From: Myxococcales bacterium
Lineage (GTDB): Bacteria; Myxococcota_A; Polyangia; Polyangiales; JADJMO01
Direction: 5' to 3'
DNA: 64,000 nucleotides
Assembly: GCA_016709545.1 (NCBI GenBank)
Contig: JADJMO010000001.1
Span: 68,372 to 132,371, forward strand
The number at the start of each line of letters is the position of its first letter. Positions within the stretch are counted from its first letter, which is position 1. Position numbers and translations under genes: made by a program. Under the pieces are notes generated by a model. The model had not been told where the DNA came from, did no database searches, and was given only the letters and a program-made list of their open reading frames with translations. Positions 8,090 through 60,600 of the stretch are shown in pieces.

Positions 8090-8192
8090 CCGGGTGAACG
8101 GATCCCTGTCCGGATCCGTCTACACGTCCATGGCCCATCGTCGAGGAGGCAGCTTCTTTCCCCATGGGCTAGGAATTGCCTAGGACCTTTGC

Positions 8193-12719: not shown

Positions 12720-12747
12720 CTCGACGCTCGCCGAAAGGCCGGCGATC

Positions 12748-15700: not shown

Positions 15701-16116
15701 TCGACGAGCTCCTCGGCAACCCAGGAGCGCGCCTCGCGGACGTGCCGTGCAGCCAGATCGCGGGCTCGACGAGCGGCAACCCCACGGTGGCGATCCCTGG
15801 CTTCCCGGATTCGGAATGCGGCAGCACGCTCGTCAGCAGCGCCCGCCGTGGCGGCAACGTGTTCATCAACCCTCGCATCGAGCTGCGACTCGCCGCGTTC
15901 AAGTGGGGCGGCATCGTCTTCTTCCTCGACGCGGCGAACACCTGGCGCGAGCGCAAGAATTTTCAGCCCTGGCGCCTCCGCTACACGGTCGGCCCCGGCC
16001 TCTCGATCGAGACCCCGGTCGGGCCGATCGCGCTCGACCTCGGGTTCAACGTGAGCCGCTACGAGGAGTTCAACGAGCCGTTGCCCGTCTTCAACTTCTC
16101 GATCGGCCGCTTCTGA
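12748..16116 (+). CDS. tamA: Omp85-family outer membrane protein assembly factor (TamA/BamA-like) with an extended POTRA region
   Basis: ORF 1122 aa with a TTG start (alternative GTG at 12760). It has a signal peptide, multiple POTRA-like repeats and a barrel C-terminus ending ...NFSIGRF (Omp85 signature). Confidence 0.75.
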   Translation: MCPSVRHLFRLLLLCIGLLLVGQAGAQTQDLPKMPPSIGASSDFEGKNVVRVTIKVDGHIWTKPPLVTLPEIGEPLVLEEARKELARLLAAGGFAEGSITLEAKEGGVEVGYVVVPGRYVRKLVVRGNVLGDEEMLRAAGLYDIRQVTEKSLESAQQKIQDLYQKRGYPSTVAAVSTIETDKPLVVVVQVTIEPGKQATVGSRVFAGLPLWDPAAQAAATSYEVAVGDRADEELLDLADRNLGNALRVAGFHQAVVSHAVSTNKNGQVTVTVTVVPGSKILVSFDGTMIFDREGLLEVLDLAHETDRSPSRLASKIEAAYVRRGRLDVQVEPDLLGKPGDPIRTLRIRIREGQIVSVAKRVYPCLTGALDPERLDKEIDAFLEEELEAGNVTMPSSSAIDGALGKQDGVASGARPEPEGPSPTRTFVPEAYEKAIEHLKDLFRSEGYLFVEIGEAVPSRAACDPKSSGPKSCVPMPQIAPDPKKLCLFDGNHLPLPIPLPDKKATCSPDPLKGRACSPSITVVIPINPGPRSYLWDLKLEGTKAFAPEVLLKESGARSSLKMGAPLSLRDVDLARAQLEGYYKDEGYAFASVKATFEYSPDRSRARVRFLVTEGELTIIDAIEITGARRTTESLIRDRLLIKDGDPFKARLVRRSIERLSQLGSFSSVAIQLVNPSVPAKRKVVVVSLAERPRQSIDYRLGYSLGEGLRFVGDYQIRHLLQYAVEAKFSLRVSKQPFLFCNEGEACKLYDSELIRRWRSLPQLDQVARRLSFSLSAPHNPLLGPVRTTLELADINDLRRDFQLHRTTAILSFSYQPLDWLSFVFAGAIERNFFKQLGKETSTALIDRNPALANILRVPEGLTGVLATSVSAIADFRDNKLGATKNGYVAMQAEYVQSFLTPGEDQARQQFWHLQGSSGVYFRVPFLPGKSVLAFELRGGVNMNTGSCAGQDPKVCSTYPDRLFYLGGFDSVRGFFPGQMLPQDSIDELLGNPGARLADVPCSQIAGSTSGNPTVAIPGFPDSECGSTLVSSARRGGNVFINPRIELRLAAFKWGGIVFFLDAANTWRERKNFQPWRLRYTVGPGLSIETPVGPIALDLGFNVSRYEEFNEPLPVFNFSIGRF

Positions 16117-22216: not shown

Positions 22217-25200
22217 TCACGGGCGATCGAGCGCCTCGCGAACCTGGCGGGTGAGCGTGCGCCAGTCGAACGGCTTGCGCAGGAAGTGCTCGTCCAGCAC
22301 GTGGTGGCGGGCGATCTCGTCGTCGGTGTAGCCCGACATGAAGATGACCGGCGCCGCGGGGCACAGCGGGGCCAGACGGCGCGCGAGCTCGCTCCCGTTC
22401 ATGCCCGGCATGATCACGTCGGTCAGGACGAGCCGCACCTCGGCGCCCAGCCTCTCGCAGATCAGGAGCGCCTCGCCGGCGTTGGCCGCCACGTGGACGT
22501 CGTAGCCGGAGGCCGTGAGCACCCGGCGCACGAGGGCGCGGAGAGCGGGTTCGTCCTCGACCACCAGGATCGACTCGTGTCCGGTGTGCGGGGAGACCGA
22601 GGCGGAGACGGTGGCGTCCACCGGCATGGTGCCCGCGTCGCGCGGCAGGTAGACGCGGAACACCGAGCCGCGCCCGACGACGCTCTCGACCGCTACTGCG
22701 CCGCCGCTCTGGCGGACGATGCCGTACACCGTCGAGAGCCCGAGCCCGGTGCCCTTCCCGAGGGCCTTGGTCGTGAAGAACGGCTCGAAGACCCGCTCCC
22801 GCGTGGCGTCGTCCATGCCACACCCGGTGTCGGCCACGGCGAGCTCGACGTAGGCGCCGGGCTTGACCTCGAGCGTCTCTGCGCGCACGCCGTCGAGCAC
22901 GACGTCGGTCGTGCTGATGCGCAGGTCGCCGCCGTCGGGCATGGCGTCGCGCGCGTTCACGACGAGGTTCATGACGACCTGCTCGATCTGGCCGCGATCG
23001 GCGCGGGTCGGGTGCGAACCGTCGCTCGCGACGATGGTCAGCTCCACGTCCTCGCCGATGAGTCGACCCACCATCTTGGTGAGGCCCCTGACCAGGGCGT
23101 CGAGCTCGATCGACTCGACGGTCATCATCTGCCGACGGCTGAACGTCAGGAGCTGCCGCGTGAGGCTCTCCGCGCGCTTGCCGGCCTCGAGCACTTCCAC
23201 GAGGTCGGCGCGCAGCGGGTCCTCGGCGCGCAGGTCGGCGATTGCGAGGTCGGTGTAGGACAGGATCACGCTGAGCAGGTTGTTGAAGTCGTGGGCCACG
23301 CCCCCGGCGAGGCGCCCGATGGCCTCCATCTTCTGCGCCACGCGGAGCTGGTCCTCCGTCTCGCGCCGCGCGGTGAGGTCGACCCCGACCCAGGTGCGAC
23401 CCACGCAGTCGTCGCCCACCATCTGGGGGCGCACGAACATCCGCACGAACCGCGTCTTGCCGGCGGCGTCGAGCAGGCGGAGCTCGCGGGGCAGGCGCGA
23501 CTCGCGGAGCTGGGCGACGATCGGGCGATCGTCGGCGTGGACGAGCTCGTCGACCGTGCGTCCGAGCAGCGCTTCGGGTCGATGGCCGAAGGCGGAGACC
23601 GCGCGGTTGGCGAAGGTGATGGCGCCGCTCGCCTCGGTGGACAAGACGAAGTCCTCGAGGTCGTCGACGAGCGAGCGGTAGCGGTCCTCGCTCAGGCGAA
23701 GGTCATCCTCGACCCGCTTGTGCGCCGTGACGTCCTGCTTGATGCCGATGAAGTGGCGCACCTCCCCGTCCTCGAAGAGCGGGGTGATGGTCATCTCCTC
23801 GCGGTAGAGCGTGCCGTCCTTGCGCCGGTTGACGAACTCGCCCCGCCAGACCTGGCCCCCGAGGATGGTCTGCCACATGGCGCGGTGGAACTCGCGCGAC
23901 TCGTGGCCCGAGTCGAGGATGCGGATGTTCTGCCCGACGACCTCGTGCTCGTCGTGGCCGGTGAGCGCGGCGAAGGCAGCGTTGACGAACTCGATCGTGC
24001 CGTCGCGGTCGGTGATCACCACCGCGTTGGCGGCGGCCTGGAACGCGCTCACGTGCAGGCGCAGTGCGGCTTCGTTCGCGCGCCGCTCGCTGAGGTCTTC
24101 CACCATGACGACGCCGGTCCCCGGTGCCCCGCCGGCTCCGTCGAGCCGGCTCACCGTCACCCGGGCCCAGACCGCGCTGCCGTCCGCGCGCAGGTAGCGT
24201 TTCTCCCGTGTCACGCCGTCGCGGCCCTCCCGGAGCGCTGCGACCGCCACGCGGTCCGCCGCGACGTCGTCCGGGTGGGTGATCGACGCCCAGGTCCGGC
24301 CGACGAGCTCGTCGCGGGGATACCCGAGCAGGCGGGCCATCTGCGCGTTGACCGCGAGGAAGCGCTCGCTGGCGAAGTCGACCTGCGCCATCCCGATGCC
24401 GGCGCGCTCGAACAGGGCCCGGTGGCGGCGCTCGCTCGCGGCGAGGGCCTCGGTCATCCGCTGCCGCTCCTGCTCGCTCTCGCGCAGCCGGTTCTCGATC
24501 CGCCGGGCCTCGTCGACGACCTCGAACACGGCGACGAACTCGAGCGGCGCTGGGCTGAACACGCTCACGGCGAACCACATGTCGAGCGAGCGCACGTGAC
24601 GCTCGAAGCGCTCGGGGACGCGGGTCCGGGCCACGCACCCGTAGATCTGGAGGAGCTCCGGGTCCCGCTCCGGCAGGCCCGGGATCACCTCGGACACGCG
24701 GCGACCGACGACGTCGCGGAGGCCGGTCTGCTGCCCGAAGGCCTCGTTGACCCAGAGGTAGACCCAGTCGACGGGCCGATCGCCCTCGAAGAACATCCGG
24801 CAGTGCGCGAGCCCCCCCTGTAGGTGCGTGGAGAGCTCGCGGAACGGATCGACGCTGGGCCGCCGCCCGACCACCGCCCCGAGCGTCTCGCCGAGCGCGT
24901 CGGCGAGCTCCTCGAGGAGCGGCACCACGGGGTCGCTCAGCGACAGGGCCGGGCGATCGACGAGCATCGCTCCCCCGCGAAACGGCACCGCGACGGCGTT
25001 GCCCTCGCCGACCACGCGTCGCTCGCGGACGGCGCACGCGAGGAGGGCCGGGGCAACAGGAGGCTCGCCGCCGACCACCCGCTGCGCCTCGTCCACCAGG
25101 CAGACATGCGAGAAGCCGAACCGCGCGCCGAGGTCCTCCGCGACGGCGGTCGAGATGCAACCCTTCGACGCGCCCTGTGCCAGTGCACCGAGCAGCCTCC

Positions 25201-25234
25201 GCAGAGCCTCTCGCAGCGCGGTCTCGTCCCTCAC
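22217..25234 (-). CDS. Hybrid sensor histidine kinase with GAF, multiple PAS, HisKA, HATPase_c and a C-terminal REC domain
   Basis: ORF 1005 aa with a GTG start. It has PAS repeats, the H-box AGGVAHDFNNLLSVI, the G-boxes DTGCGMD and GTGLGLS, and a receiver ESILVVEDEP...LTDVIMPGMNG. Confidence 0.85.
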   Translation of the reverse strand: MRDETALREALRRLLGALAQGASKGCISTAVAEDLGARFGFSHVCLVDEAQRVVGGEPPVAPALLACAVRERRVVGEGNAVAVPFRGGAMLVDRPALSLSDPVVPLLEELADALGETLGAVVGRRPSVDPFRELSTHLQGGLAHCRMFFEGDRPVDWVYLWVNEAFGQQTGLRDVVGRRVSEVIPGLPERDPELLQIYGCVARTRVPERFERHVRSLDMWFAVSVFSPAPLEFVAVFEVVDEARRIENRLRESEQERQRMTEALAASERRHRALFERAGIGMAQVDFASERFLAVNAQMARLLGYPRDELVGRTWASITHPDDVAADRVAVAALREGRDGVTREKRYLRADGSAVWARVTVSRLDGAGGAPGTGVVMVEDLSERRANEAALRLHVSAFQAAANAVVITDRDGTIEFVNAAFAALTGHDEHEVVGQNIRILDSGHESREFHRAMWQTILGGQVWRGEFVNRRKDGTLYREEMTITPLFEDGEVRHFIGIKQDVTAHKRVEDDLRLSEDRYRSLVDDLEDFVLSTEASGAITFANRAVSAFGHRPEALLGRTVDELVHADDRPIVAQLRESRLPRELRLLDAAGKTRFVRMFVRPQMVGDDCVGRTWVGVDLTARRETEDQLRVAQKMEAIGRLAGGVAHDFNNLLSVILSYTDLAIADLRAEDPLRADLVEVLEAGKRAESLTRQLLTFSRRQMMTVESIELDALVRGLTKMVGRLIGEDVELTIVASDGSHPTRADRGQIEQVVMNLVVNARDAMPDGGDLRISTTDVVLDGVRAETLEVKPGAYVELAVADTGCGMDDATRERVFEPFFTTKALGKGTGLGLSTVYGIVRQSGGAVAVESVVGRGSVFRVYLPRDAGTMPVDATVSASVSPHTGHESILVVEDEPALRALVRRVLTASGYDVHVAANAGEALLICERLGAEVRLVLTDVIMPGMNGSELARRLAPLCPAAPVIFMSGYTDDEIARHHVLDEHFLRKPFDWRTLTRQVREALDRP

Positions 25235-25291: not shown

Positions 25292-25483
25292 ATGGTCGTG
25301 TCGAGCATGAAGCGACGGTCCCTGACCGTTCGTCGTGTCGCCGACTGGTTCTTCGACAAACCTTCGAACGACCCTCGCTCGACCTTGACCTTCGACGTGT
25401 CGTCGATCACCGCGCCAGCGAAGGGCCGTCGCCGCTCGCGACGCGGCCGAGGGCCTGCTGGATCCCGCGCGGCTCGTCCCTAG
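25292..25483 (+). CDS. Possible small basic protein (63 aa) antisense-overlapping the giant-ATPase stop, divergent from the kinase promoter
   Basis: MVVSSMKRRSLTVRRVADWFFDKPSNDPRS... with GAGGGAG just upstream and GC3 about 75%. Nothing else supports it. Confidence 0.2.
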   Translation: MVVSSMKRRSLTVRRVADWFFDKPSNDPRSTLTFDVSSITAPAKGRRRSRRGRGPAGSRAARP

Positions 25484-28400
25484 ACGTCGTAGAGCAACGG
25501 CTCGCGCCGCTGCGCGTACATCGCGACCAGATCGCGCGTCTCGTCGGGCAGGTCCGTGAACGTGATCCCGAACCCGGCGGGGCGATCGCCGGCCTCGTCC
25601 TGGGTGAAGGCGACCTTGCCGCGCGCGGGCCCGGAGACCTGCCCCGGGAACAGGAGCTGCAGCGCGACCTCGGCGCCACGGGCAGGGGGCTTCTGGTAGG
25701 TGGCCACGAACACGCCGTTGATCACGCGCGCGGTGTCGCAGGTGAGGTTGGTCGCGTCGCCGCGCGAGAGGTCGACCTCCACCGCGGGGATGGCGTCGCG
25801 CCGGACCATCAGCTTCTCGAGCTCCGAGAGCTTCTGCACGAGCGCCTGGGTGATGGCCGGGTCGGTGCTCGGCGTCCTCGCGAGCGCCTTCACCATCGCG
25901 TCGCCGAGCGCCTGGATCGCCGTGAGATCCACCGCGCGCGGCGGCGACGGGTTCTCGAGGGTGACCCGCACGTCGGTCTTCACGCTGGAGAGCGCCTGCC
26001 CGAGCTTGGTGAGCGTCTCGCTGAGCTGCGCCGCGGTGGTGGCCTTGTCGCGCGCCCCGCTGTCGGCCGCGAGCGCGACGGCCTTGTTCAGCGCGAGCAG
26101 CTGCTCCTCGAGCCCGTTGATGGTGGCGGTCACCCGGGAGACCGGGTCGTCGCCCTCCTTGCCGCCGCGGCGGGTGCGCTTGAAGCCCTCCTTGATCTGC
26201 TCCCAGCGCGCGCGCTGCTCGTCGGTCATCCGGCCGCGCAGCTCGGCGAGCTTGAGCAGGTTCTGCTCGGCGCCGGTCGCGAGGGTCTGCGACTCGGCCT
26301 GGTAGTGCTCGTCGATCGTGCGGTCGAGCTCGTCCATCGTCATGACGGGCGCCAGCTTCTGCACGATCTTGCTCATGTTGCGGTAGCTGCCCTGCAGCTT
26401 GAACGGCGGCTCGGTGCGGTACGCGTCCTCCTGCGAGGCGGCCTTGATGTAGTTCTTGTTCACCTCGAGCAGCACGTCCTGCACGCGCGCCAGCAGCTTG
26501 AGCATGGCGAGGATGTCGGAGAGCTCGGCGCCGGCATAGCCATGGGCGAGCTCGGAGGCCGCGATGGGCTCGCCGCGCGCCATGCGGGCCAGCTTGTAGA
26601 GATCGGCCGGGTCGCGGCCGGAGAGCGGCGCCAGGGTGGGGTGGGAGGTCAGCGCGTTCTCGAGGTAGCTCAGCGCGAACAGGTCCTCTCTGCCGCCGAG
26701 CACCTCGCCGAGGTTGTGGGTGTCGGCGCGGTTCGCCAGCATGTCCGGGATGCGGAAGCGCGCGCCGGACTCCGTGTAGGGGTTCGCCGCCATCACCACG
26801 CAGAACCGCTTGCCGCGGAAGTCGTAGGTGCGGCTCTTGCCGCCGAAGACGCCCTCGACCTTGCGCTGGGCGTCGCAGAGGCTGATGAACTTCTCGAGGA
26901 ACTCGGGCGAGGTGTGCTGCACGTCGTCGACGTAGAGCATCACGTTGTTCCCCATCTCGAACGCGAGGTTCACGCGCTCGATCTCCTGGCGCGCGGTGAG
27001 GCTCTTGCACTCGGCGGGGTCGAGCGAGTGTACGTCGTGGCCGAGCGCGGGGCCGTTCACCTTGACGAAGACGAGCCCGAGCACGCTCGCCACGTACTCC
27101 ATCAAGGTGGTCTTGCCGTAGCCGGGCGGCGAGACCAGGAACAGCAGGCCCATGCGGTCGGTGCGCTTCTGGTCACCGAGCGCGCCGATCTGCTTGCCGA
27201 GGTTCGCCCCGACCAGCGGCAGGTACACCTCGCTGATCAGCTTGTTGCGTACGAACGAGGAGAGCACCTTGGGCACGAACTCCGAGAGGCGCATGCGCTC
27301 GCGCTCGCGGGCGAGGAGATCGGCGCGGCGGGCGCGGTAGAGGCGGAACCGCGCCGCGGTGACCGTCTCGAAGTGGCGGAGGCGCACCAGGAACTCGGCG
27401 AGCTCGAGGTTCATGCCGCCATCGCGGATCCGCTCGTGGGACCCGAGGAGGCCGGTCACCTCGAGGGTGGTCTCGGCCGAGAGCACCTCGCGGTCCGCGC
27501 GCCCGTCGGTGAGGAGGATGGCGGCGACCTCGGGGGCGAAGGTCGAGAGCGGGGAGGCGAGCTTCTCGAGGCTCCGCGCGTAGAGCCCGGCGAGCTCCGT
27601 GCGCTCGCGCGGGCGGGACGCGAGCAGCTGCAGCTCGTCGTGCAGCGCGCGGTACTCGCCCGCCTCCTCGAGCTTGCGGCGCAGCATCTTCGCGCCCTCG
27701 TCGGAGGCGCGGGCCACCGGGAAGCGCGGGATCTTCCCGCCCAGCACGTCGACCACGACGTCGGCCGCGTCGTCGGGCTCCGAGGGGCCGACCGCGAGGC
27801 CGATGGCCTCGGCGTAGGCGCGCACCTTCGGCGCGAGCTCGGTCTTGAGGCTGGTCACGCCGCGCACGTCGCCGAGCACGGCCGCGAGCCGGGCCACGCT
27901 CTTCGCCCGTCGCGTGAGGACGTTGCGCTCCTCGGTCGCGAGATCCGCGACGAAGGTGAGGGCGAGTCCCCGGGCGCGCGGCGTGAACCGCAGCGGCCCC
28001 GCGGCCTCGAACGCCGGCATGAGCTGCGCCAAGATCGCGGTCGCGTCGGCGTCGTGCACCCCGCGCTCGTAGCCCTCGTCGAGGCGCCCCGCGGCGAAGT
28101 CGGAGACGACCGCGAGCAGGCGCGACTCGCGGAGCGCCGCCCGCAGCTGCGCCATGTCGGGGCCCTCGCGGCCGGCGAGGGCGTCGTCGAGGATGCGGAA
28201 CGCGAGGTACTCCCCGCGGTAGACGGCCTTGGACTCGGAGGCGATCGACTGCTCCCATACGTCGGAGAGCTCGTCGAGCGCCGGGTCGGTCAGGCGCTGG
28301 TAGAAGTCGGTCCCGGTGAGGTGGAGCGCGAGCCCTTCTTCGCGCGGCACGACCACGAGGTCGATCGCGCTCTTGGTCACCGAGAAGGTGAACCCTCCGA

Positions 28401-30993
28401 GCTTGACGCCCTCGCCGTCGGCGAGCTCGCGCTTGTCGCGCAGGTTGCGGACCGCGTCCTGCCGGCACACCTTGAGGCGGGTGCCGAGCTCGTCGGCGCG
28501 CACGTTCTCGCCGAGATCCGCGAGCCGTTCGACCGACTCGCCCACCTTCTGGACCATCGGATCGCTGGCGAAATACGCCTGGAGGTCGTCCTCGGTGGCG
28601 AACGTGGCGGCCTTGCGGACGATGCCCGCGATCATGCGGTCGCCCGCGGAGCCGAGCGCCGCGGCGCGCTTGTGGCGCTCGTCGGCGAGGGTCTGGCGGC
28701 GCGAGCCGAAGGTCTCGGTGACCTCGTCGCGCTTGTCGATCTCGACGGCGAACTCCTCGAGCTCGCCGAACCGACCCGGGAGCTCCTCGAGGCGGAGCAG
28801 CAGCTTGCCGAGCTCGGCGTCGCAGCCGGCCGGGGTCGAGGCGGCGCTCACCGCGGCGGAGACCGCGTGGGCGAACACCCCGAGCTGCACCGCGAGCTCG
28901 GCGCGCCCCTCGCGGCCGTAGAGCTCCTTCTTCTTGGAGTCGTAGCTGGCGCGGACGCGGTTGAGCACCGCGAGCGCCTTCGAGAGCTGCTCGAGCACCC
29001 GCGTGCGCACCGTGGCGTCGTCGACCTCGAGCGCCGAGACGGTCTCGCCGAGGAGCAGGAGCCGCTCGTGCAGGGTGTCGAGCTTCTCCTTGTGCGGCTT
29101 GAGGTCGACGGCCTTGGCGGCCTTGTCGATCTCGCCGCCGAGCTGCTCGACCGACGCGATCACCGGGGTCCACGCGCCCTCGGACTCGAAGTAGGTGACG
29201 CAGGCCGTCCGCACCTCGACGAAGCGCGCGTCGACGGCCTTCTCGAGGAGGTCGATGGCGCCGAGGTCGATGTACCGGAGCTCGCGGAGCGAGACGAGCT
29301 TGCCGCGCTGGGTGCGGAGGGCCGAGAGCGCGGCGAGGAAGCTCTCCGCGGAGGGAGCGTCCTCCGGGCGCTGCGTCGAGAGCAGCGTCTTCTGCGCCTC
29401 GGTCGCCTCGACCACGGCCTTCTCGGCCTGCGCGCGGTACTGCTCGACCTTCTCGAACTCGGCGAGGATCGCGTCGGCGCTCTTGCGCACGTCCTTGAGC
29501 GCGCTCTTGAGGTCGAACGCCTCGGCGTGGCCGATCCAGTAGTGGTCGTCGATGGCCCGACCGACGACGGTGATGAGCTCCTCGAACGTGCGGCGGGTTG
29601 GGGTCTCGGTCAGGGCGAGCCGGCGCACGGCGTAGGCGTCGCTCACGCCGCGCACGAGCGCCGGGTTGCCGACCTTGGCCAGGTACGAGCCCGCGTTGGC
29701 GGTCCTGGCCTTCTTCTCGGATTCCTCGAGGGTCGAGAACGGTGTGCGCCACACCTGGAACGGGTGCACGCGCGTCGCGTCCGCACCCTCGGGGGCCCGG
29801 AAGATCGCCATCGTGCCGTCGGCGAACACGCTGTAACCGTGGCACTTGATCGGGGCGCCGAGCTCCTTGGTGATCAGGTTGTAGGGGAGCTGCAGGTAGA
29901 GCCCCTCCTCGCTCCGGTAGAACACGTAGAGGACGTCCTCGCCGTTGGGGGCGTGGATCATCGTCTCGAAGCGCATCCCCGCGGTGTCGGGGTCGAGCAC
30001 GCGGGGCCCCTCGGCCGTGACGTAGTGGCCGCCCGGGAACAGGATGCCCTGGCCCTCGGGCAGCTCGAGGCACGCCTGCCCGATCGCGTCGATGCGGGTG
30101 ACGGTCTTCTGCAGCGTGTTGTAGACGAGGTAGCGGGTGGTCTCCTCGCGGTAGGGGAGCACCTTGAGCAGGATGAGGGCGCCCACCTTGGCCCAGGAGA
30201 TCTCGCCGTCGTCGAGGGTCTGGTTCGGGTCGGCGACGGGCTCGCGCCAGATGCCGCGCCCGTCCTTGGTGTTGTTCTCGATCTTGACGGTGAGGTCGCC
30301 ACCGACCGTCTCCACGAACACCTGGTCGAGGATGTTCACGTGGGGGTGGGCGCCCATCACCTGCTGCTCGCGGCCGGTGCGGGTCCACTTGAACGCGAAG
30401 CTCGGCGGGTCGACGTTGTCTTCCTCGCCGCGCGCGTCGATGTAGGTGACCTGGTTCTTGCCGTCGATCCCGAAGCGGAACACGGTGACGTCGGTGAGCT
30501 TGTCGCCGATCTGCGCGATGATCAGCAGGCGCTTGTCGGTGCGCCGCAGCTTGAGGATGCGCGGGCCCTTGGCGTACTTGAACGCCGTGGTGAAGTCGTT
30601 GACGAAGGCGGGCGTCGCGAGGAACGTGCCCTCGAGGGCGATCGGCTCGAGGCCCTCGCCGCCGTCCGCGTCGAGGCGGTAGAGCGCGAACACATGGCCC
30701 ACGGCGGGCACGCTCTTGAGGCCGAGCGTGACGTTGAACGTGAACAGCAGGAACCCGCCCACCGAGACCATTTCGCGCGGGTGCGCGGCGTTCTCGGTGC
30801 GCACCCGGCTGGTCTGCGCGAGCTCGAACGCGGACGAGCCGAAGATGGCCTTGCGCGCGGCGTTCACCTGCTCCGCGCGCGTGGTCAGCTCGGTCACGTG
30901 GCCGAGGAGCCGCTGCCGGACGACCTCGTAGCTCCCCGCGTCGAGGCCGCCGGTGCCGGCGTCCTCGCCCTTCGTTTCCGGCGCTTGGGCCAT
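25480..30993 (-). CDS. Giant (1837 aa) AAA+ ATPase (AAA_5/MoxR-type P-loop) protein, flotillin-associated, with a possible C-terminal PilZ-like domain
   Basis: ORF 1837 aa with uniformly high GC3. Walker A is LVSPPGYGKTTLMEYVASVLG and Walker B-like is VMLYVDDVQH, with an arginine-finger region. The N-terminal ~430 aa are beta-rich, followed by a long helical/coiled-coil region. The C-terminal ~110 aa carry a DLSRGD...GFGITFTDL PilZ-like pattern. It starts 8 nt after the flotillin stop. Confidence 0.8.
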   Translation of the reverse strand: MAQAPETKGEDAGTGGLDAGSYEVVRQRLLGHVTELTTRAEQVNAARKAIFGSSAFELAQTSRVRTENAAHPREMVSVGGFLLFTFNVTLGLKSVPAVGHVFALYRLDADGGEGLEPIALEGTFLATPAFVNDFTTAFKYAKGPRILKLRRTDKRLLIIAQIGDKLTDVTVFRFGIDGKNQVTYIDARGEEDNVDPPSFAFKWTRTGREQQVMGAHPHVNILDQVFVETVGGDLTVKIENNTKDGRGIWREPVADPNQTLDDGEISWAKVGALILLKVLPYREETTRYLVYNTLQKTVTRIDAIGQACLELPEGQGILFPGGHYVTAEGPRVLDPDTAGMRFETMIHAPNGEDVLYVFYRSEEGLYLQLPYNLITKELGAPIKCHGYSVFADGTMAIFRAPEGADATRVHPFQVWRTPFSTLEESEKKARTANAGSYLAKVGNPALVRGVSDAYAVRRLALTETPTRRTFEELITVVGRAIDDHYWIGHAEAFDLKSALKDVRKSADAILAEFEKVEQYRAQAEKAVVEATEAQKTLLSTQRPEDAPSAESFLAALSALRTQRGKLVSLRELRYIDLGAIDLLEKAVDARFVEVRTACVTYFESEGAWTPVIASVEQLGGEIDKAAKAVDLKPHKEKLDTLHERLLLLGETVSALEVDDATVRTRVLEQLSKALAVLNRVRASYDSKKKELYGREGRAELAVQLGVFAHAVSAAVSAASTPAGCDAELGKLLLRLEELPGRFGELEEFAVEIDKRDEVTETFGSRRQTLADERHKRAAALGSAGDRMIAGIVRKAATFATEDDLQAYFASDPMVQKVGESVERLADLGENVRADELGTRLKVCRQDAVRNLRDKRELADGEGVKLGGFTFSVTKSAIDLVVVPREEGLALHLTGTDFYQRLTDPALDELSDVWEQSIASESKAVYRGEYLAFRILDDALAGREGPDMAQLRAALRESRLLAVVSDFAAGRLDEGYERGVHDADATAILAQLMPAFEAAGPLRFTPRARGLALTFVADLATEERNVLTRRAKSVARLAAVLGDVRGVTSLKTELAPKVRAYAEAIGLAVGPSEPDDAADVVVDVLGGKIPRFPVARASDEGAKMLRRKLEEAGEYRALHDELQLLASRPRERTELAGLYARSLEKLASPLSTFAPEVAAILLTDGRADREVLSAETTLEVTGLLGSHERIRDGGMNLELAEFLVRLRHFETVTAARFRLYRARRADLLARERERMRLSEFVPKVLSSFVRNKLISEVYLPLVGANLGKQIGALGDQKRTDRMGLLFLVSPPGYGKTTLMEYVASVLGLVFVKVNGPALGHDVHSLDPAECKSLTARQEIERVNLAFEMGNNVMLYVDDVQHTSPEFLEKFISLCDAQRKVEGVFGGKSRTYDFRGKRFCVVMAANPYTESGARFRIPDMLANRADTHNLGEVLGGREDLFALSYLENALTSHPTLAPLSGRDPADLYKLARMARGEPIAASELAHGYAGAELSDILAMLKLLARVQDVLLEVNKNYIKAASQEDAYRTEPPFKLQGSYRNMSKIVQKLAPVMTMDELDRTIDEHYQAESQTLATGAEQNLLKLAELRGRMTDEQRARWEQIKEGFKRTRRGGKEGDDPVSRVTATINGLEEQLLALNKAVALAADSGARDKATTAAQLSETLTKLGQALSSVKTDVRVTLENPSPPRAVDLTAIQALGDAMVKALARTPSTDPAITQALVQKLSELEKLMVRRDAIPAVEVDLSRGDATNLTCDTARVINGVFVATYQKPPARGAEVALQLLFPGQVSGPARGKVAFTQDEAGDRPAGFGITFTDLPDETRDLVAMYAQRREPLLYDV

Positions 30994-31001
30994 GGGACCC
31001 T

Positions 31002-33044
31002 CTAGGGCGCGTCCTTCTTCACCATGCCGAGGAGCTTCTTCTGCGCGTCCTTGTCACCGCGGGCGAACCGCTCGACGAGCCCCGCGAGCTCCGGGTCGAG
31101 CGAGCCGTCCTTCACGAAGTCCCGCGCCACGTTGCGCAGGGTGACGCTCTCGCCGAGGGCCGCCTCGACCGATTGCCCGACGCCGATCGCCTTCACGTAG
31201 CGGTCGAAGAACGCGCCGTCGCCGCCCACGATGTTGAACTTCGCGTTGGCCAGCGACTTCCCGAGCACGTCGGCCTGGGCCATCGCCTGCTCCTTGCGGG
31301 CCTTGATGGTCTCGATCGCCACGGTGCGGTCCTTCTCGAGGTTGAGGCGGAACTCCTCGTGTCCGCGCCCGCTCTCGTCGAGGATCCGCATGGCCTCGGC
31401 CTTCTCGCGGATGCCGGTCGCCTCGGCGGTCATCTTCTCGCGCACGACGGAGGCCTCGGCCGCGCCCTGCTTCTGGATCGCGTCGGCCTCGGCCTGGCGC
31501 ACGGCGACCTTGGCGAAGCCCTGCTTCTGCTCGCCCTCGGCGGCGGCGTTCATCTTCTCGAGCGAGACGCGCGCCTCGACGAGGCCCTGCTTCTCGAAGG
31601 CGAGCGCGTCGGCTTCCTTCACCCGCGCGGCGGCGAGGCCCTTCGCGGCCTCCTCGGCCTGCACGCCCTCGGCGAGGCGCACCTTGGCGCGCGCCATCTT
31701 GTCGGCCGTCTCGAGCTCGGCGTCGGAGGTGAGGATCTTCTCGCGCGCCTTGTGCTTGGCGGCTTCCTCGGAGGCCTCGGCGGCCTTCACCAGCTTGACC
31801 ATGCCCTCCTGCGCCTGGGCCTCGGCGGCGAGCCGGACGACCTCCTTCTCGCGGTTGGCCTGCGCGGTCGTGCGCAGATCCTTGATCTGCTCCTCCTCGG
31901 CGGCCACGGTCTTGTCGACGGCGATGCGCGTGCGCACCACGTCGGCGATCTCCTTCTTCTGCTGCTCGAGGTCGCGGTCGCGGGCCAGCACGGCGACCTG
32001 CACCTCGCGCTCGCGCGCCACCGCCTCGAGCTGCCGCGCCTTCTCCACGCGCTCGCTCTCGACGAGGATCTCCCGCTCGCGGTTCTTCTGCGCGATCGAG
32101 ACGCCACGGTTCTTCACCTCGTTGGCGATGAGGGTCTCCTCCTCCACCTTCTGGCGCAGCAAGAGGGTGCGCTTCTGCTCCTCGAGAGCGAGCCGCGTGG
32201 CCTCGTTCTCCTCGCGAATCTTAACGACCGAAATTTCGCGATCCTTCTTGGCCTCGGCCTCGGCCTTGCGCTGCTCGAACCGGAACATCGCCTCGTCGGC
32301 GGTGAGGTTCTGGCTGCCCTTCTCGGTGCGCTCCTTCTGGCGGAGCTCGTTGGTGGCGACGTTCTTCTCCACCGTGAGGGCGGTGATCTTGCGGATGCCC
32401 TCGGAGTCCATGATGTTGTTCGGATCGAGCGCCTCGAGCGGGGTCTGCTCGAGGTAGTCGATCGCCGCGTCGTCGAGGATGAACCCGTTCAGGTCCTTGC
32501 CGATGACGCGGATGATCGCCTCCTTGAACTCCTCGCGCTTGGTGTAGAGCTGCTCGAAGTCGAAGTGCTTGCCGACCGTCTTGAGCGCCTCGGAGAACTT
32601 GGCGTTGAACAGCGCCACCAGGGTGTCCTCGTCGCTCGCCCGCGCGCAGCCAATGGACTGGGCCACCTTGAGCACGTCGTCGGCGGTCTTGTTCACCCGC
32701 ACGAAGAACGTGACGTTGATGTCGGCGCGGATGTTGTCGTTGCAGATCAGGCCCTCTTTTCCGCGGCGATCGATGTCGATCGTCTTGACGGAGAGGTCCA
32801 TCACCTCGGCGCGGTTGACGATCGGCAGCACGAGCCCACCCGTGAAGGTGACGTACGGCTTGTCGTTCCGCGAGGTGTTGATGATCAGCGCCTTGCCTTG
32901 CTCGACCTGACGGTAGAAGCGCGCGAACATCGCGCCGATCCCGAACAGGATGACGACCCCGGCGCCGATGGCGGCAAAGATGGGCAACAACTCGTGCATT
33001 GGAAGCTCGCTCCCCTGGAGGCGCGAGAGGGGTGCGCGGTGCAC
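31002..33044 (-). CDS. Flotillin/SPFH (band 7) family protein, YqiK-like
   Basis: ORF 680 aa. It has an N-terminal TM helix (LLPIFAAIGAGVVILFGIGAMF), an SPFH domain, then a long Ala/Glu/Lys-rich coiled-coil typical of flotillins. An alternative start is the ATG at 32999. Confidence 0.85.
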   Translation of the reverse strand: MHRAPLSRLQGSELPMHELLPIFAAIGAGVVILFGIGAMFARFYRQVEQGKALIINTSRNDKPYVTFTGGLVLPIVNRAEVMDLSVKTIDIDRRGKEGLICNDNIRADINVTFFVRVNKTADDVLKVAQSIGCARASDEDTLVALFNAKFSEALKTVGKHFDFEQLYTKREEFKEAIIRVIGKDLNGFILDDAAIDYLEQTPLEALDPNNIMDSEGIRKITALTVEKNVATNELRQKERTEKGSQNLTADEAMFRFEQRKAEAEAKKDREISVVKIREENEATRLALEEQKRTLLLRQKVEEETLIANEVKNRGVSIAQKNREREILVESERVEKARQLEAVAREREVQVAVLARDRDLEQQKKEIADVVRTRIAVDKTVAAEEEQIKDLRTTAQANREKEVVRLAAEAQAQEGMVKLVKAAEASEEAAKHKAREKILTSDAELETADKMARAKVRLAEGVQAEEAAKGLAAARVKEADALAFEKQGLVEARVSLEKMNAAAEGEQKQGFAKVAVRQAEADAIQKQGAAEASVVREKMTAEATGIREKAEAMRILDESGRGHEEFRLNLEKDRTVAIETIKARKEQAMAQADVLGKSLANAKFNIVGGDGAFFDRYVKAIGVGQSVEAALGESVTLRNVARDFVKDGSLDPELAGLVERFARGDKDAQKKLLGMVKKDAP

Positions 33045-33093
33045 CGCTCTTCGCTCCGTGGATCCTGCCAGGCACGGACGAACTAGGTAAAGT

Positions 33094-33822
33094 TCATGAC
33101 CGGCGGCGGCCGCTCGCTTCGTCCATCGGCGCCACGATGTACTCCTCGCGCTCCTCGTCGAACCCCACGATCACGCCCTCCTCGCCGCGCTTCATCGCCA
33201 CGCCCTCCACGCGGACGCGCAGCACGATCTCGGCGCCGGTGTCCTTGACCAGGGCCTCGCCGAAGCGCTCGTCGGCCTGGCCGGTGCGGATGGTGCAGGT
33301 CTGGCCGAGCAGGTCGCGCGAGGACTTGGCCCTCCGCGGCGTGAGCAGCGGGGCGAGCGGGCGGGTGGCCAGCTTGGTGAGCGGGAAGGCGAGGAGCGGC
33401 GCCACGACGAAGGCGAGCAGTGCCTTCACCATCATGCCCGGGTTGTAGTGGGCCTGGTGCGTGGCCCAGAGGGCGACCAGCGTGAGGATCCACGAGAAGA
33501 ACGAGACGAGCGAGAAGGAGATCGTGACCGGGACGTCCTTCAAACGGAAGAACCCCGCGATGCCGGCGGGGGCGTCCTCGCTGGCGAAGGCCTCGTGGCC
33601 GCCGTCCACGTCGTGCCCGCCGACGTCGCCCGCGTCGCCCGCATCGCCGAGGTCGGCGTGGCCGGCGTCGGCGCCGTGGCCGAGACCTTCGGCGCCGCCG
33701 TCGGCGCCCTCGCCGAGGTGGACGAGGCCGCTCATGACGAACAGCCAGTAGACCAGGGAGATCGCCACGAGCACCGTCCACACCGCCACGGGGAAGTGCA
33801 GGAACAGCGCGAAAGCGCTCAC
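33094..33822 (-). CDS. YqiJ/NfeD-like inner membrane protein (DUF1449-type, C-terminal OB-fold), flotillin partner
   Basis: ORF 242 aa with a GTG start. It has an N-terminal TM segment, a His/Asp/Gly-rich acidic stretch, two more TM helices and a C-terminal beta domain GQTCTIRTGQADERFGEALV...GVIVGFDEE. It sits directly upstream of the flotillin gene, as E. coli yqiJ does with yqiK. Confidence 0.7.
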   Translation of the reverse strand: MSAFALFLHFPVAVWTVLVAISLVYWLFVMSGLVHLGEGADGGAEGLGHGADAGHADLGDAGDAGDVGGHDVDGGHEAFASEDAPAGIAGFFRLKDVPVTISFSLVSFFSWILTLVALWATHQAHYNPGMMVKALLAFVVAPLLAFPLTKLATRPLAPLLTPRRAKSSRDLLGQTCTIRTGQADERFGEALVKDTGAEIVLRVRVEGVAMKRGEEGVIVGFDEEREEYIVAPMDEASGRRRS

Positions 33823-34295
33823 GGCCGCGCGCCCTCGGGCTCTCTCGCGAGGAGCTCGGCGATCCGGTCGAGGCGGGCGAGCAGCGCGTCGTGCTTGGTC
33901 TGCTCCGCGTCCGCCGCGGCGCGCACGTCGACCGCCGTCTCGTCGAGGGCGCGGGTCGCCATCGCGGGGCCGAACATCATCAGCAGCGTCACGATCTGCT
34001 TGCCGCGCTCGGTGCAGGCGAAGATGTCACAGTAGCCGACCGAGAGGTTGGTCGAGACGAAGACCAGTGCGTCGTTGATCGAGCGCACCTTCGGGTTGTG
34101 GCCGACCTCGGCCTTGTAGAAGAGCTGCGCCGCGACGAGGGTGGTCCAGATCACCGCGTCGGCCGGGTCCTCGCGGCTCTCCTCGCGCATCCATTGCTTG
34201 GCCTCGTCGAGGAGGTCCGGGGCGAGGAGCCCGAGCAGGAGAGACGACGCGCCCATGGCGGAAAACCGTACCGTCCGGCCACGGAAGAAGTCCAT
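33819..34295 (-). CDS. Hypothetical protein (158 aa), first gene of the flotillin operon
   Basis: It is the C-terminal part of track ORF 33819..34919, starting at ATG 34295 (MDFFRGRTVRFSAMGASSLLLGLL...). It overlaps the yqiJ-like start as GTGA. GC3 is high. Confidence 0.45.
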   Translation of the reverse strand: MDFFRGRTVRFSAMGASSLLLGLLAPDLLDEAKQWMREESREDPADAVIWTTLVAAQLFYKAEVGHNPKVRSINDALVFVSTNLSVGYCDIFACTERGKQIVTLLMMFGPAMATRALDETAVDVRAAADAEQTKHDALLARLDRIAELLAREPEGARP

Positions 34296-34707
34296 TCCGC
34301 GACTGGCCCGCCGGTTGCTGAGGGGAGAGGGCAAGACCCCGAGCCAGGAGTTCCCATGCAGCGACAGCGAGTTCCGACGGCATTTCGTGGCGTGTTCGGC
34401 GGTGGAGAGCCGGTGACCCCTGACGCCCGCGCCAAGCGGGTGACGCCCGGGCCCTCGAGCCACCTGCTCGGCGTGGTCGAGGCGCTGCTGTCGAGCGACC
34501 CCGAGGAGGCCCGGACACTGGTCCTCGAGATCGCGTCCAGGGTGCGCGCCCACGCCTGGCACGCCGGCGGCACTCAACAGGCGGCGCGGGCGGCCGCGCT
34601 CGCCGATCGGCTGCAGAGGGCCGGAGACAGCGGCGACCTGCGCTCGCTGTTCGCCGGCGCGCGATGACTTGACCCGATCCCGACCTGTCGCGGCACCATC
34701 AGGGTGC

Positions 34708-35571
34708 ATGAAGCTCGTCCCATCGGTCGCCGCGGTCGTGTTCGTCTCGGCGTGTGGTGGTGAGTCGACCCAGACCGGGCTCGACGACGGTGGGACCCTG
34801 ACAAGCGAAACGGGCCCGGACACGACAGGTCTGGTGGACACTCGGCCCCCCGGCGTGCCGACGGGCCCGGGTGACGGCAAGTTCCAGAAGGCCTTCCGCG
34901 ACGGCGGGGTCGGGGTCACCTGCGAGATGACCTACGACGACATGGTCAAGAGCGGCGCACCCTCGATCACGAGCGGCGCCACCACCATCTTCGTCGGATT
35001 CCAGCAGTACGGCGCCAATCAGGACCCGGTCTTCTACCGCTTCGATGACAAGAAGAAGGTCTACTGCGAGCACCACGAGAAGGAGTCACCCGACGGGCGC
35101 GCGGTCGGCATCACGTGGGACGGCGGACCGACCGCGTGGGTCGTCTACACGATCGTCGGGGGCGGCAGCGCCTTCGACGGCCTCGCCAAGGGCGGCTGGA
35201 TCGCGAGCTACGGCGACGGCGGCGGCAGCTCGAAGGTCGCGGTCATCGGCGAGGTCGAGACCCAGTTCGGCACCGTGCGTCGGATGACCTTCGTGCCCGC
35301 CAAGCGGCAGGACGGCACCAAGACCAACACGCTGAACCCCGCCGACGCGATCACGGTGCTCACCGACGGTACGCTCGAGTTCAAGGGAGGCTCGGCGTTC
35401 GCGCCGCTCAACCCCGACCGAACGCCGATGTGCGTGGGCTCCACCGAGTACCCGGCCGCCCTCGACGGGGCGAAGGGCCCCTCGTACGTCGCGCGGTTCT
35501 CCGCCGATCTCAAGACGGTGCTCTGTGCCTCGACCGCGGGCTGCAGCCTCGTCAAGCAACCCTGCAAGTAG
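34708..35571 (+). CDS. Hypothetical lipoprotein
   Basis: MKLVPSVAAVVFVSAC lipobox. It is 287 aa, beta-rich, with several Cys pairs. Confidence 0.6.
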   Translation: MKLVPSVAAVVFVSACGGESTQTGLDDGGTLTSETGPDTTGLVDTRPPGVPTGPGDGKFQKAFRDGGVGVTCEMTYDDMVKSGAPSITSGATTIFVGFQQYGANQDPVFYRFDDKKKVYCEHHEKESPDGRAVGITWDGGPTAWVVYTIVGGGSAFDGLAKGGWIASYGDGGGSSKVAVIGEVETQFGTVRRMTFVPAKRQDGTKTNTLNPADAITVLTDGTLEFKGGSAFAPLNPDRTPMCVGSTEYPAALDGAKGPSYVARFSADLKTVLCASTAGCSLVKQPCK

Positions 35572-36120: not shown

Positions 36121-36258
36121 CCGGCCGACCGGAGCCGGACGTTCACGGGCGGCCACGGCACAGACATCCTGCCATTGCTGCCATGCGGGCGGCGAAGTAG
36201 CCAAGATCCCTCCCTCCGTTCACCTTCGCGTCGCACGGGCCAGGCACCCTGCGCCGAC

Positions 36259-37110
36259 ATGACGCGCATCGCCCACCTGACCGACCTCCACCTCGTCGAG
36301 CGCCGGCCCGAGGCCCGCTCGTGGCAGGACCGCCTGCGGATCCAGACGATCTCGCAAGGGCGGCCGATCGACTCCGAGCGGCCCCGCCGCCGCCTGCGCC
36401 GGGCCTTCGCGGAGGCCCGCGCCGCGCGGGCCGACCATGTCGTCGTCACCGGTGACCTCACCGAGGACGGCATCCCCGCCCAGTTCGAGGTCCTCGCCGA
36501 GGAGCTCCACGCGGCGCCGTTCGCGCCCGAGCAGATCACCCTGGTGCCCGGGAACCACGATGGCTACACCTCGGGCGACGCCTTCGAGAAGGCGCTCGCC
36601 GGCCCGCTCGCCGCGTTCCGCGTCACGAGCCGCCCGGGCACCGCTGTCGAGCTGAAGGGCGCCACCGTCGTCGCGCTCTCCACCACCATCCACCAGCACT
36701 GGCTGCGCGCGGCCGGAGAGCTCGGCGAGCGGCAGCGTCGTCGCATCCACGACGTGCTGCACGCGCGCGAGCGCCGTGGCGCGACGGTGCTCGCGATGCA
36801 CCACCCACCGTTCACCTTCGGGCTGCGGCTCGGCTGGCTCGAGGGCCTGCTCGACCTCGGCTTCGTGCGCACGATGCTGCGTCCGTTCCGCAGCGCGCAC
36901 GTGCTGTGCGGGCACGTCCACGAGCGCGGTGACCACCGCCTCGGGCCGGCGCGACATGCGCGGCTCCACACCGCGCACTCCGTGGCCGAGGACGACCGCG
37001 CCCTCCGCCTCTACGACGCCATCGACGATCGGCTCGTACCGAGCGACGGTCCCGTGCCGTTCGCGCTCGCCATGCGCGCCTTCCGGCAGTCCGCGCTCGG
37101 AGAAGCCTGA
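36259..37110 (+). CDS. Calcineurin-like metallophosphoesterase
   Basis: MTRIAHLTDLHL..., GDLTEDG, GNHD, HHPP and GHVHER motifs are present. Confidence 0.75.
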   Translation: MTRIAHLTDLHLVERRPEARSWQDRLRIQTISQGRPIDSERPRRRLRRAFAEARAARADHVVVTGDLTEDGIPAQFEVLAEELHAAPFAPEQITLVPGNHDGYTSGDAFEKALAGPLAAFRVTSRPGTAVELKGATVVALSTTIHQHWLRAAGELGERQRRRIHDVLHARERRGATVLAMHHPPFTFGLRLGWLEGLLDLGFVRTMLRPFRSAHVLCGHVHERGDHRLGPARHARLHTAHSVAEDDRALRLYDAIDDRLVPSDGPVPFALAMRAFRQSALGEA

Positions 37111-37111
37111 C

Positions 37112-56895: not shown

Positions 56896-56961
56896 GGATG
56901 GATCCCTCTCTCCGCCCCGGGCCCGGCCCGGGGTGTTTCACGACTGATCGATGCAGACTGG

Positions 56962-57390
56962 CTACGACTTCGGCTTCACGGTCAGGACGGCGATCGGCGC
57001 CGCGCCCCCCGCGCGGGCCACGTCCATCGCCTCCACCGCGGCGCCGAACGGGGCGTCTTCTTCCGCGGTGAAGAACAGCGTGTGGTCGCCGTTCTTGGCG
57101 GCGAACACGCGCTTGAGCTTCTCCTTGAGCTGATCCTTCGCGATCGGCTCGTTGTTCAGCTTCACGACCCCCGCCTTGTCGACCGAGAGGACGACGGGCT
57201 TGGCGTTGGGGTCGGGCTTGGCCTCCTTCTTCTCCTCGTTCTTCGGGAGGTTCACCCAGAACTGCTTGGTGAGCAGCGGCGTGACGACCATGAAGATGAT
57301 GAGGAGGACGAGCACCACGTCGACCAGCGGCGTGATGTTCATCGCCGGCCGGACCTTGGCCTTCTTGGGGCCGCCGATGTCGATGCCCAT
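56962..57390 (-). CDS. exbD: ExbD/TolR family biopolymer transport protein
   Basis: AMNITPLVDVVLVLLIIFMVV. Confidence 0.85.
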   Translation of the reverse strand: MGIDIGGPKKAKVRPAMNITPLVDVVLVLLIIFMVVTPLLTKQFWVNLPKNEEKKEAKPDPNAKPVVLSVDKAGVVKLNNEPIAKDQLKEKLKRVFAAKNGDHTLFFTAEEDAPFGAAVEAMDVARAGGAAPIAVLTVKPKS

Positions 57391-57391
57391 C

Positions 57392-57874: not shown

Positions 57875-57900
57875 GGGAACCTCCTCGCCTCGTCTCGGTC

Positions 57901-58614: not shown

Positions 58615-58627
58615 TGCTCCTGGCGAA

Positions 58628-60584: not shown

Positions 60585-60590
60585 AGGAGA
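60585..60590 (+). promoter_or_regulatory. Shine-Dalgarno AGGAGA for hppA
   Basis: ctccaggagagatttccctcATG. Confidence 0.45.
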
Positions 60591-60600
60591 GATTTCCCTC

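Follow-up and report, generated by a model that had tools for sequence, protein, structure and literature searches.

A YqiJ/YqiK-type flotillin operon with a giant DUF3686-family AAA+ ATPase in a Myxococcales bacterium

Background

Together with NfeD partners, SPFH proteins form large cages attached to the membrane, as HflK/C does around the AAA+ protease FtsH; HflK/C faces the periplasm, and flotillins of the YqiK type are generally taken to face the cytoplasm. ATPases of the MoxR class are hexameric remodellers of specific protein complexes, normally acting through a VWA adaptor, and the CbbQ-CbbO, NorQ-NorD and RavA-ViaA systems are complex remodellers rather than unfoldase-proteases. The coupling of an SPFH scaffold to an AAA+ protein at the inner membrane, as in HflK/C-FtsH, is a conceptual precedent for the locus described here, a cluster of four genes in which those for a YqiJ/NfeD-like protein and a flotillin are followed by one for a giant ATPase. 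The cluster lies in a 64-kb stretch (hereafter the window; G+C about 70 %) of contig JADJMO010000001.1 from the myxobacterial assembly GCA_016709545.1. FtsH is a membrane-anchored AAA+ protease of the classic clade, whereas the giant ATPase has no Pfam protease domain and appears to belong to another AAA+ clade. YqiJ-YqiK of Escherichia coli and YuaF-FloT of Bacillus subtilis (Hinderhofer et al. 2009, PMC2636767) are two-gene modules with the same order and architecture as the first two of these proteins, but the yqiJ-yqiK operon of E. coli, unlike this locus, lacks a downstream ATPase gene.

The closest described system is that of Ravi et al. (2024, mSystems, PMC11237479), whose account of these operons lists a CesT/Tir-PspA dyad, a band-7/flotillin protein, a YqiJ/YuaF protein with three transmembrane (TM) helices and a protein combining β-propeller, coiled coil and AAA+ domain, and says of the abbreviated operons, which lack PspA, that their distribution is wider. 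For Dokdonia donghaensis, the table of that paper gives the order YqiJ-YuaF, then Band-7 with coiled coil and flotillin, then beta-propeller with coiled coil and AAA-ATPase, and a chaperone-like role in assembling sub-membrane complexes is inferred there. As far as that account goes, the same three proteins are found in the same order at our locus, which corresponds to the abbreviated form since the CesT/Tir-PspA dyad is absent from the window; the full form was recovered in Pseudoalteromonas, Hymenobacter and the megaplasmid pQBR103. Two features are added here: the first gene, which is K+-channel-like, and the PilZ-like tail in which the ATPase ends. In the passages on these operons the enzyme is called a 'novel AAA+ ATPase' with no clade given, and our structural model places it nearest to MoxR, midasin and dynein. 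That it is a member of the DUF3686 family is secure on the grounds of architecture and context, not of a comparison of accessions, because loci in which DUF2170-PspA genes stand upstream of a DUF3686 gene fit the published description. A preliminary description of the locus had considered the pairing of a flotillin with such an ATPase unusual, a view that is not supported: the combination is found in many bacterial phyla, and this gene order had already been described by Ravi et al. Most likely, the locus is an operon for a membrane scaffold of the SPFH-NfeD kind (YqiJ/YqiK type) that includes a remodelling ATPase dedicated to this scaffold.

Results and discussion

Organisation of the gene cluster

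Four co-directional open reading frames (ORFs) are present on the minus strand (Table 1). Their G+C content at third codon positions (GC3) is 0.94-0.97 and at second positions (GC2) 0.39-0.47, a combination of high GC3 and low GC2 that, in a genome of 70 % G+C, identifies all four as real genes. The stop codon of the small first gene overlaps the GTG start of the YqiJ-like gene by 4 nt (GTGA), 49 nt separate the YqiJ-like stop from the flotillin GTG at 33044, and only 8 nt lie between the flotillin stop and the ATG of the giant gene, with a Shine-Dalgarno-like AGAGGG spanning that stop. The ATG at 32999 is probably a better flotillin start than the GTG, since it is preceded by GGGGAG, in which case the gap would be 94 nt. 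A scan for promoters and terminators gave no minus-strand terminator-like hairpin inside the cluster and no sigma-70 consensus, a consensus which does not cover myxobacterial promoters, and no Rfam element was found in 24800-36200. Upstream, the cluster is bounded by genes on the plus strand, divergent from it and starting at 34356 or 34708, and downstream by 245 non-coding nt before a hybrid kinase gene. Co-transcription of the four genes is therefore likely, given the tight packing, the lack of internal terminator or promoter signals in that scan, and the clear boundaries. The coordinates, the spacing and the tight packing are thus as the preliminary description had them; its four-gene unit stands for this genome, whereas in other genomes only a core of three genes is conserved, the channel-like gene being lineage-specific.

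Table 1. Features of the gene cluster and of its surroundings (positions in the window).
Feature	Coordinates	Strand	Basis or remarks
Small membrane protein, 158 residues, first gene	33819..34295	-	Pore-only (2-TM) K+-channel homologue; GC3 0.94
YqiJ/NfeD-like inner-membrane protein, 242 residues	33094..33822	-	Alignment A3, hhalign, gene position
YqiK-type flotillin/SPFH protein	31002..33044	-	680 residues from GTG; 665 residues from ATG 32999
Giant cytoplasmic ATPase, 1837 residues, DUF3686 family ('DNA repair ATPase')	25480..30993	-	Pfam
DUF3686 N-domain, residues 35-485	29539..30891	-	N-terminal helix, 6-7 four-stranded beta meanders, C-terminal helices
DUF7902, residues 607-690, helical segment	28924..29175	-	Pfam; weak syntaxin Habc-like profile match
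Conserved middle domain, residues ~840-1000	27994..28476	-	Five-stranded beta sub-domain, then helices
AAA+ module, lid and C-terminal helices, residues ~1240-1600	26194..27276	-	Motifs
PilZ-superfamily-like C-terminal domain, residues 1760-1826	25516..25716	-	TIGR02266; lineage-specific
Hybrid sensor kinase	22217..25234	-	Three PAS, HisKA, HATPase_c, REC
Possible 103-residue protein	34356..34667	+	GC3 0.85; no Pfam match
Probable lipoprotein, 287 residues (MKLVPSVAAVVFVSAC...)	34708..35571	+	No Pfam match
TamB-like protein (1,511 residues), then POTRA/Omp85 protein	8184..16116	+	TamB, AsmA, DUF748; second protein TamA/BamA-like
Calcineurin-like metallophosphoesterase, then Ser/Thr protein kinase (956 residues)	36175..39646	+	Both divergent from the operon
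TonB-dependent-receptor-like protein, ExbD, ExbB, with OmpR-type response regulator and H+-pyrophosphatase	53983..58722; 60508..63135	-; +	Receptor-like protein: CarboxypepD_reg, Plug and barrel

Conservation of the gene order

The neighbourhood of the giant gene was compared in 80 loci, one genome per species, by clustering all ORFs around it. Flotillin and YqiJ-like families were the only ones broadly conserved, every other family occurring in 15 loci at most. In the 64 loci with enough upstream sequence, the flotillin gene lies directly upstream of the giant gene and on the same strand in 49, and 1-6.5 kb upstream in another four; no flotillin gene is present within 7-10 kb in the remaining 11 (nine from Sorangium, one from Labilithrix and one other). 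In 43 of 46 loci the YqiJ-like gene directly precedes the flotillin gene. The closest public relatives of the locus are contigs of Myxococcales/Polyangiales metagenome-assembled genomes, with giant proteins 98 % (L003) and 96 % (L001) identical, and the same order is also found in Proteus mirabilis, two Vibrio species and Pseudoalteromonas, as well as on replicons of Pseudomonas fluorescens (pQBR103), Streptomyces, Deinococcus and Hymenobacter; it spans Myxococcota, Gammaproteobacteria, Planctomycetota, Bacteroidota, Actinomycetota and Deinococcota. The conserved core thus consists of three genes, encoding the YqiJ/NfeD-like protein, the YqiK-type flotillin and the giant protein with DUF3686, DUF7902 and AAA+ domains. 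Conservation of the flotillin linkage had been set beforehand as a test of the proposal, and the linkage holds both in the majority of the 64 loci and in distant phyla. The divergence of the giant protein is correlated with that of the flotillin across loci (r = 0.94), a value that we set aside as evidence of interaction because any co-inherited gene pair would give it.

The loci without the adjacent pair are those of Sorangium (L016, L018, L019, L021, L022, L024, L027, L034 and L050) together with L068 and L055. Around the giant genes of Sorangium and Labilithrix, in genomes of 12-16 Mb, the pair is either absent within 10 kb or separated from them by 5-6 kb of other genes, as also in L013-L015.

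The giant protein and its ATPase class

The giant protein matches Pfam DUF3686 (PF12458) over residues 35-485 with 537 bits (cut-off 25), DUF7902 (PF25472) with 72.5 bits (cut-off 26) and AAA (PF00004) with 28.5 bits (cut-off 21.2). The matches to AAA, AAA_22 and AAA_5 are weak and fall within residues 1281-1407; AAA_5 reaches 21.9 bits against a cut-off of 22, and most homologues carry a PF07728 record. The homologues number more than 3,500; at 50 % identity, the family falls into 643 clusters in a set of 1.84 billion representatives, its proteins being nearly all 1,550-2,050 residues long. The preliminary description had reckoned with the possibility that the protein would turn out to belong to a well-characterised family; the DUF3686 family does have a name, but it is uncharacterised and the name is unsupported.

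That name, 'DNA repair ATPase', raises the question of whether the protein acts in DNA repair, which we find hardly credible. In its favour there is nothing but the title that Pfam gives to DUF3686, from which the NCBI product names derive. Similarity to RuvB does not extend beyond some 35 residues at Walker A, the domain and profile searches revealed nothing DNA-related in the protein, and the gene adjoins two membrane-protein genes in six phyla. The literature searched offers no backing for the name either: a paper on Proteus that uses the words 'DNA repair ATPase' does so for a resistance plasmid region, with no link to the DUF3686 family.

An alignment of 63 diverse members served to derive a conservation profile, according to which the conserved core extends from residue 1 to about 1600, with the ATPase region (1240-1440) being the most conserved part and the last ~240 residues being lineage-specific. 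The beta-rich N-terminal domain noted in the preliminary description is borne out, its meanders being predicted to be propeller-like. The next part had been read as a coiled coil of about 800 residues, of which the alpha-helical character remains; a structure model of residues 830-1640 (AF2, pLDDT 85.3) has two small beta sub-domains in 830-1240, and a strongly conserved globular part occupies about 840-1000. A plain coiled-coil reading of the ~750-residue middle is therefore ruled out for the modelled part 830-1240. Along the model, a small five-stranded sheet (model residues 33-72) is followed by helical bundles, after which come a second sheet, also small, and a long helix that connects to the AAA+ fold. 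The middle domain (~840-1000), with invariant G866, E920, G978, H980 and D983 and a GVHDxDA motif in the 63-member alignment, gave no family or fold match. A TM segment was not seen on inspection of the translation of the giant protein, for which no formal prediction was made.

The AAA+ module has Walker A (SPPGYGKTT, 1288-1296), a pre-sensor-1 beta hairpin (1378-1391), sensor-1 N1404 and R1422. Walker A, for which the motif GYGKTT had been noted earlier, is invariant throughout the 63 members as SPPGYGKTT, and so are N1404, R1422 and a Walker B of the form hhhhDD (D1356 and D1357; 26924-26929) that is followed by an invariant Q and H (DDxQH, 63/63 members). The catalytic Glu of the usual AAA+ Walker B (DE), which is also that of MoxR/AAA_5 proteins, is never present among them. 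Searches of the PDB with the single sequence and with the 63-member profile gave matches at the level of Walker A only, those of the profile being RuvB, NVL, Rix7 and p97 at E ~1e-3. The predicted fold, in which helix 3 is followed by a beta hairpin before the sensor-1 strand, is more informative: among solved structures it comes closest to the MoxR chaperones CbbQ and NorQ, followed by midasin and dynein, and the ATPase core is accordingly placed, in the model, nearest to the MoxR group among the AAA+ clades, consistent with the MoxR/AAA_5 class that had been proposed. The segment NP...G...IPD.L.NR after sensor 1 is presumably the same as in AAA_5/MoxR proteins. There are clear differences from ordinary MoxR proteins, which are of ~300 residues and have a separate VWA/MIDAS partner, whereas here the AAA+ module stands at the C-terminal end of a 1,600-residue conserved core and such a partner is not conserved: no neighbour family beyond the pair is conserved in the 80 loci, and there is no VWA domain in the window genes scanned.

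The YqiJ-like protein and the flotillin

According to alignment A3, an acidic linker rich in Gly and Asp separates the first TM helix of the YqiJ-like protein from the other two, and the C-terminal domain is soluble and beta-rich. It falls below the Pfam gathering score (YqiJ_N, 18.1 bits against 23), and the NfeD C-domain is matched by only 2 of 26 orthologues (E 0.011). Profile comparison with hhalign gave 99.6 % for a Hymenobacter 'DUF1449 family protein' in the same operon position and 74 % for E. coli YqiJ, for which DUF1449 is the NCBI family name. Weak KcsA-like TM matches of the YqiJ-like family in the PDB profile search were regarded as compositional and rejected.

The flotillin label needed testing, because the sequence of the gene product itself has neither a Pfam model at E < 0.01 nor a PDB match, and its family profile found nothing meaningful in the PDB (best hit TIM21, E 0.27). 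Ten of 34 flotillin orthologues from related loci do match Pfam Band_7, with a best E of 6e-13; the family profile (A2) aligns with E. coli YqiK over 408 columns, reaching YqiK residue 434 (hhalign 99.8 %, E 3.5e-30); and 50 % identity over 631 residues is shared with a 'flotillin family protein' (NCBI name) of Streptomyces. Identified in this way, through profiles and orthologues, the 680-residue protein is to be classed as a YqiK-type flotillin. Its predicted layout comprises an N-terminal TM helix (residues 20-43 are hydrophobic), an SPFH domain, a long Ala/Glu-rich helical region with A/E-rich repeats at about 240-560, as judged from the translation and the consensus, and a conserved C-terminal segment. 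With 680 residues it is longer than YqiK (553), and it is too divergent to be recognised by Pfam Band_7 alone. The YqiK profile match, together with the DUF1449 match in the same operon position, upholds the YqiJ/YqiK-like assignment, and with it the earlier claim of a YqiJ/NfeD and flotillin pair.

Proposed function

The overall statement that we favour is that the giant protein uses ATP to remodel assemblies of the flotillin, either in the upkeep of the membrane or under envelope stress. As solved SPFH complexes suggest by analogy, the flotillin, anchored by one N-terminal helix, and its three-TM YqiJ-like partner would form a large oligomeric cage or microdomain on the inner membrane, at its cytoplasmic side. 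The giant protein would be composed of a propeller-like recognition domain, a helical spacer with a conserved globular insert and an AAA+ motor of the MoxR class; it may dock on the scaffold via its propeller and middle domains and oligomerise through the AAA+ module into a MoxR-like ring, so that ATP would be spent on building up, taking apart, clearing or in some other way remodelling the assembly of flotillin or the proteins contained in it. The adaptor role of the separate VWA protein of ordinary MoxR systems could be taken by the fused N-terminal region. The setting of the system would be the maintenance of the membrane or stress on the envelope, where in other lineages PspA would take part as well. 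In this Polyangiales lineage, the system has gained two extras: the ATPase carries a degenerate PilZ-like tail, and a K+-channel-pore homologue is encoded ahead of the first core gene, with which it is probably coupled in translation.

The association with PspA is found directly upstream of the triad in several genomes: CesT/Tir(DUF2170)-PspA in Pseudoalteromonas and Hymenobacter, and PspA in Gilliamella. On pQBR103 of P. fluorescens SBW25 (L087, 1-6830), a yjfJKLMC-like PspA/polyamine operon directly precedes the triad on the same strand, with genes for PspA, a rhomboid protein, DUF2491, DUF350, DUF1190 and a glutathionylspermidine-synthase-like protein. LemA, TelA or TerD genes are located near the triad in other genomes; a TerD gene on a Streptomyces plasmid (L088, 16149-16682) is a single case.

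Several points weigh against this interpretation. The contact between ATPase and flotillin is, like oligomerisation, the direction of remodelling and the trigger, something that we infer. The DD Walker B may imply slow hydrolysis, or a switch-like instead of a motor-like role. In the 11 loci mentioned above, mainly of Sorangium, the flotillin linkage is lost, and therefore the ATPase can persist without an adjacent flotillin gene. Neither PspA nor DUF2170 was found in the 64-kb window by tblastn with queries from the locus L086, nor PspA_IM30 among the window genes scanned, so that the tie of this locus to PspA is by analogy. Finally, our literature search returned no paper mentioning DUF3686 or PF12458, none linking the family to flotillin and no experimental work on any member. 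With these points taken into account, the statement as a whole appears to us probable on balance; its two parts stand differently, the identity of the components being near certain and the mechanism much less certain than that.

Mobility, flanking genes and phage defence

The distribution of the module is patchy, and yet its proteins are 40-50 % identical across six phyla, which suggests horizontal transfer; copies occur on megaplasmids. These properties would also fit an anti-phage or abortive-infection system, in which the flotillin/YqiJ pair would be the membrane effector or sensor and the giant protein a conflict-system NTPase; phage defence was among the roles considered in the preliminary description. 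Some neighbourhoods go in the same direction: in Vibrio, island-like genes for a HipA/HTH toxin-antitoxin, an RNA ligase, KTI12/HD and TelA are present, and a gene for a ClpX-like ATPase adjoins one for a Dam methylase, while TerD and TelA neighbours occur as already indicated. However, a comparison of the four proteins with the 5,027 models of PADLOC-DB 2.0 rendered only a spurious 47-residue AbiEii fragment (E 0.0016), there was no copy in 50,697 phage records, and the domain searches revealed no effector domain, be it a nuclease, a protease, an NADase or another. The recurrent partner elsewhere is PspA, a membrane-repair protein, and the flanks of the operon in the window are ordinary chromosomal genes (TamA/B-like, glycosidases, kinases, TonB/ExbBD and H+-pyrophosphatase). 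A role in phage defence is thus unlikely, and remodelling of flotillin assemblies remains the reading that we prefer.

As for these flanks, the hybrid sensor kinase gene beyond the 3' end of the giant gene is not conserved with the module in other genomes. On the other side, the genes for the possible 103-residue protein and the probable lipoprotein are both divergent from the operon, and the room for an operon promoter is about 60 nt, or about 410 nt if the former gene is not real. Further away, the TamB-like and POTRA/Omp85 genes look like a translocation-and-assembly-module pair, and the TonB/ExbBD genes adjoin those for an OmpR-type response regulator and an H+-pyrophosphatase, an ordinary chromosomal context and not a defence island.

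Lineage-specific additions: the PilZ-like tail

The C-terminal tail of the giant protein, for which a PilZ-like nature had been suggested, resembles TIGR02266 with 33.1 bits, well below the cut-off of 68.7, and Pfam PilZ does not match the tail at all; PF07238 is precomputed on about a quarter of the close homologues. Past residue ~1600 the tail is absent or variable in the wider family, being confined to members of the Polyangiales type. The two canonical motifs for binding of cyclic di-GMP (c-di-GMP), RxxxR and DxSxxG, are both absent here, and DxSxxG was found in only 13 of 118 homologous tails. The likeness to PilZ therefore stands as a weak one, whereas the c-di-GMP regulation that had been proposed with it is unsupported because the motifs are lacking.

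It could be argued that the tail makes the giant protein a c-di-GMP-regulated machine for motility, secretion or export, to which the PF07238 records on many close homologues and a GGDEF gene directly upstream of the triad in Deinococcus would be congenial. We consider this very unlikely, since the family core ends at ~1600, the similarity is under the cut-off and deprived of the binding motifs, and no motility or secretion genes are conserved nearby in the 80 loci. The GGDEF gene (Deinococcus actinosclerus plasmid, L089, 2607-4088) is a single case; it echoes the PilZ-like tail of the window as the K+-transport gene of Streptomyces described below echoes its channel-like gene.

Lineage-specific additions: the channel-like first gene

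The product of the small first gene matches Pfam Ion_trans_2 (E 0.0012) and NCBIfam K_channel_Meth (2.9e-5), both under their cut-offs; its profile (A6) finds KvAP (4e-6), KCNQ2 and KcsA in the PDB, and hhalign gave 79 % against an approximate KcsA sequence. The selectivity filter reads SVGYCD where channels have TVGYGD, and in relatives GYC, GYS, GYA or GEA replaces GYG, the second glycine being changed. As judged from these comparisons the protein is a lineage-specific K+-channel pore homologue with a degenerate filter, and for this reason it is uncertain that it conducts. The gene is found inside the operon solely in the four closest genomes (L001, L003, L004 and L007), and homologues in another place or orientation lie within 10 kb of the module in three others (L008, L045 and L069).

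The operon could also be, in this lineage, an ion-channel control unit, with the flotillin/YqiJ scaffold and the ATPase gating or sequestering the K+-channel-like pore. Eukaryotic SPFH proteins of the stomatin type modulate channels; the first gene has its stop overlapping the YqiJ-like start, and in seven related genomes its homologues are no more than 10 kb away from the module, also where the order is another. On a Streptomyces plasmid (L088, 2002-3966; a single case), a gene for an NAD-binding protein annotated with K+ transport is divergently adjacent to the triad, and stomatin/NfeD pairs have been proposed as channel regulators in work cited in PMC13086221. Nevertheless, the small gene is absent from the great majority of triad loci, so such control could be a lineage-specific add-on only and not the core function, and the degenerate filter adds to the doubt. 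We regard channel control as quite unlikely and maintain ATP-driven remodelling of flotillin assemblies as the function proposed for the core.

Conclusions

The locus is a new, slightly embellished member of a system that has been defined by comparative genomics; as a kind, this system is not new. The locus represents its version in Myxococcota and flags two lineage-specific add-ons, and the present analysis corrects the misleading 'DNA repair ATPase' label and places the motor near the MoxR group. Single deletions of bacterial flotillins such as YqiK usually have no phenotype (PMC2636767, PMC13086221), and a conserved, dedicated ATPase partner represents a handle on the assembly dynamics of flotillins, the more so as the system is present in tractable hosts such as Proteus mirabilis, Vibrio, Myxococcus and, on the megaplasmid pQBR103, P. 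fluorescens SBW25.

A bolder, and in our opinion doubtful, conjecture is that the DUF3686 giants are the dedicated, hitherto missing motors for the assembly and disassembly of bacterial flotillin cages, a MoxR-class counterpart of Vps4 for ESCRT-III, in which the propeller would dock on the flotillin or YqiJ cap, the DD Walker B would make cycling slow and switch-like and, in this Polyangiales lineage, a co-encoded degenerate K+-channel pore may be under their control. If this were true, the machine of this lineage would couple the sensing of membrane damage to ion flux.

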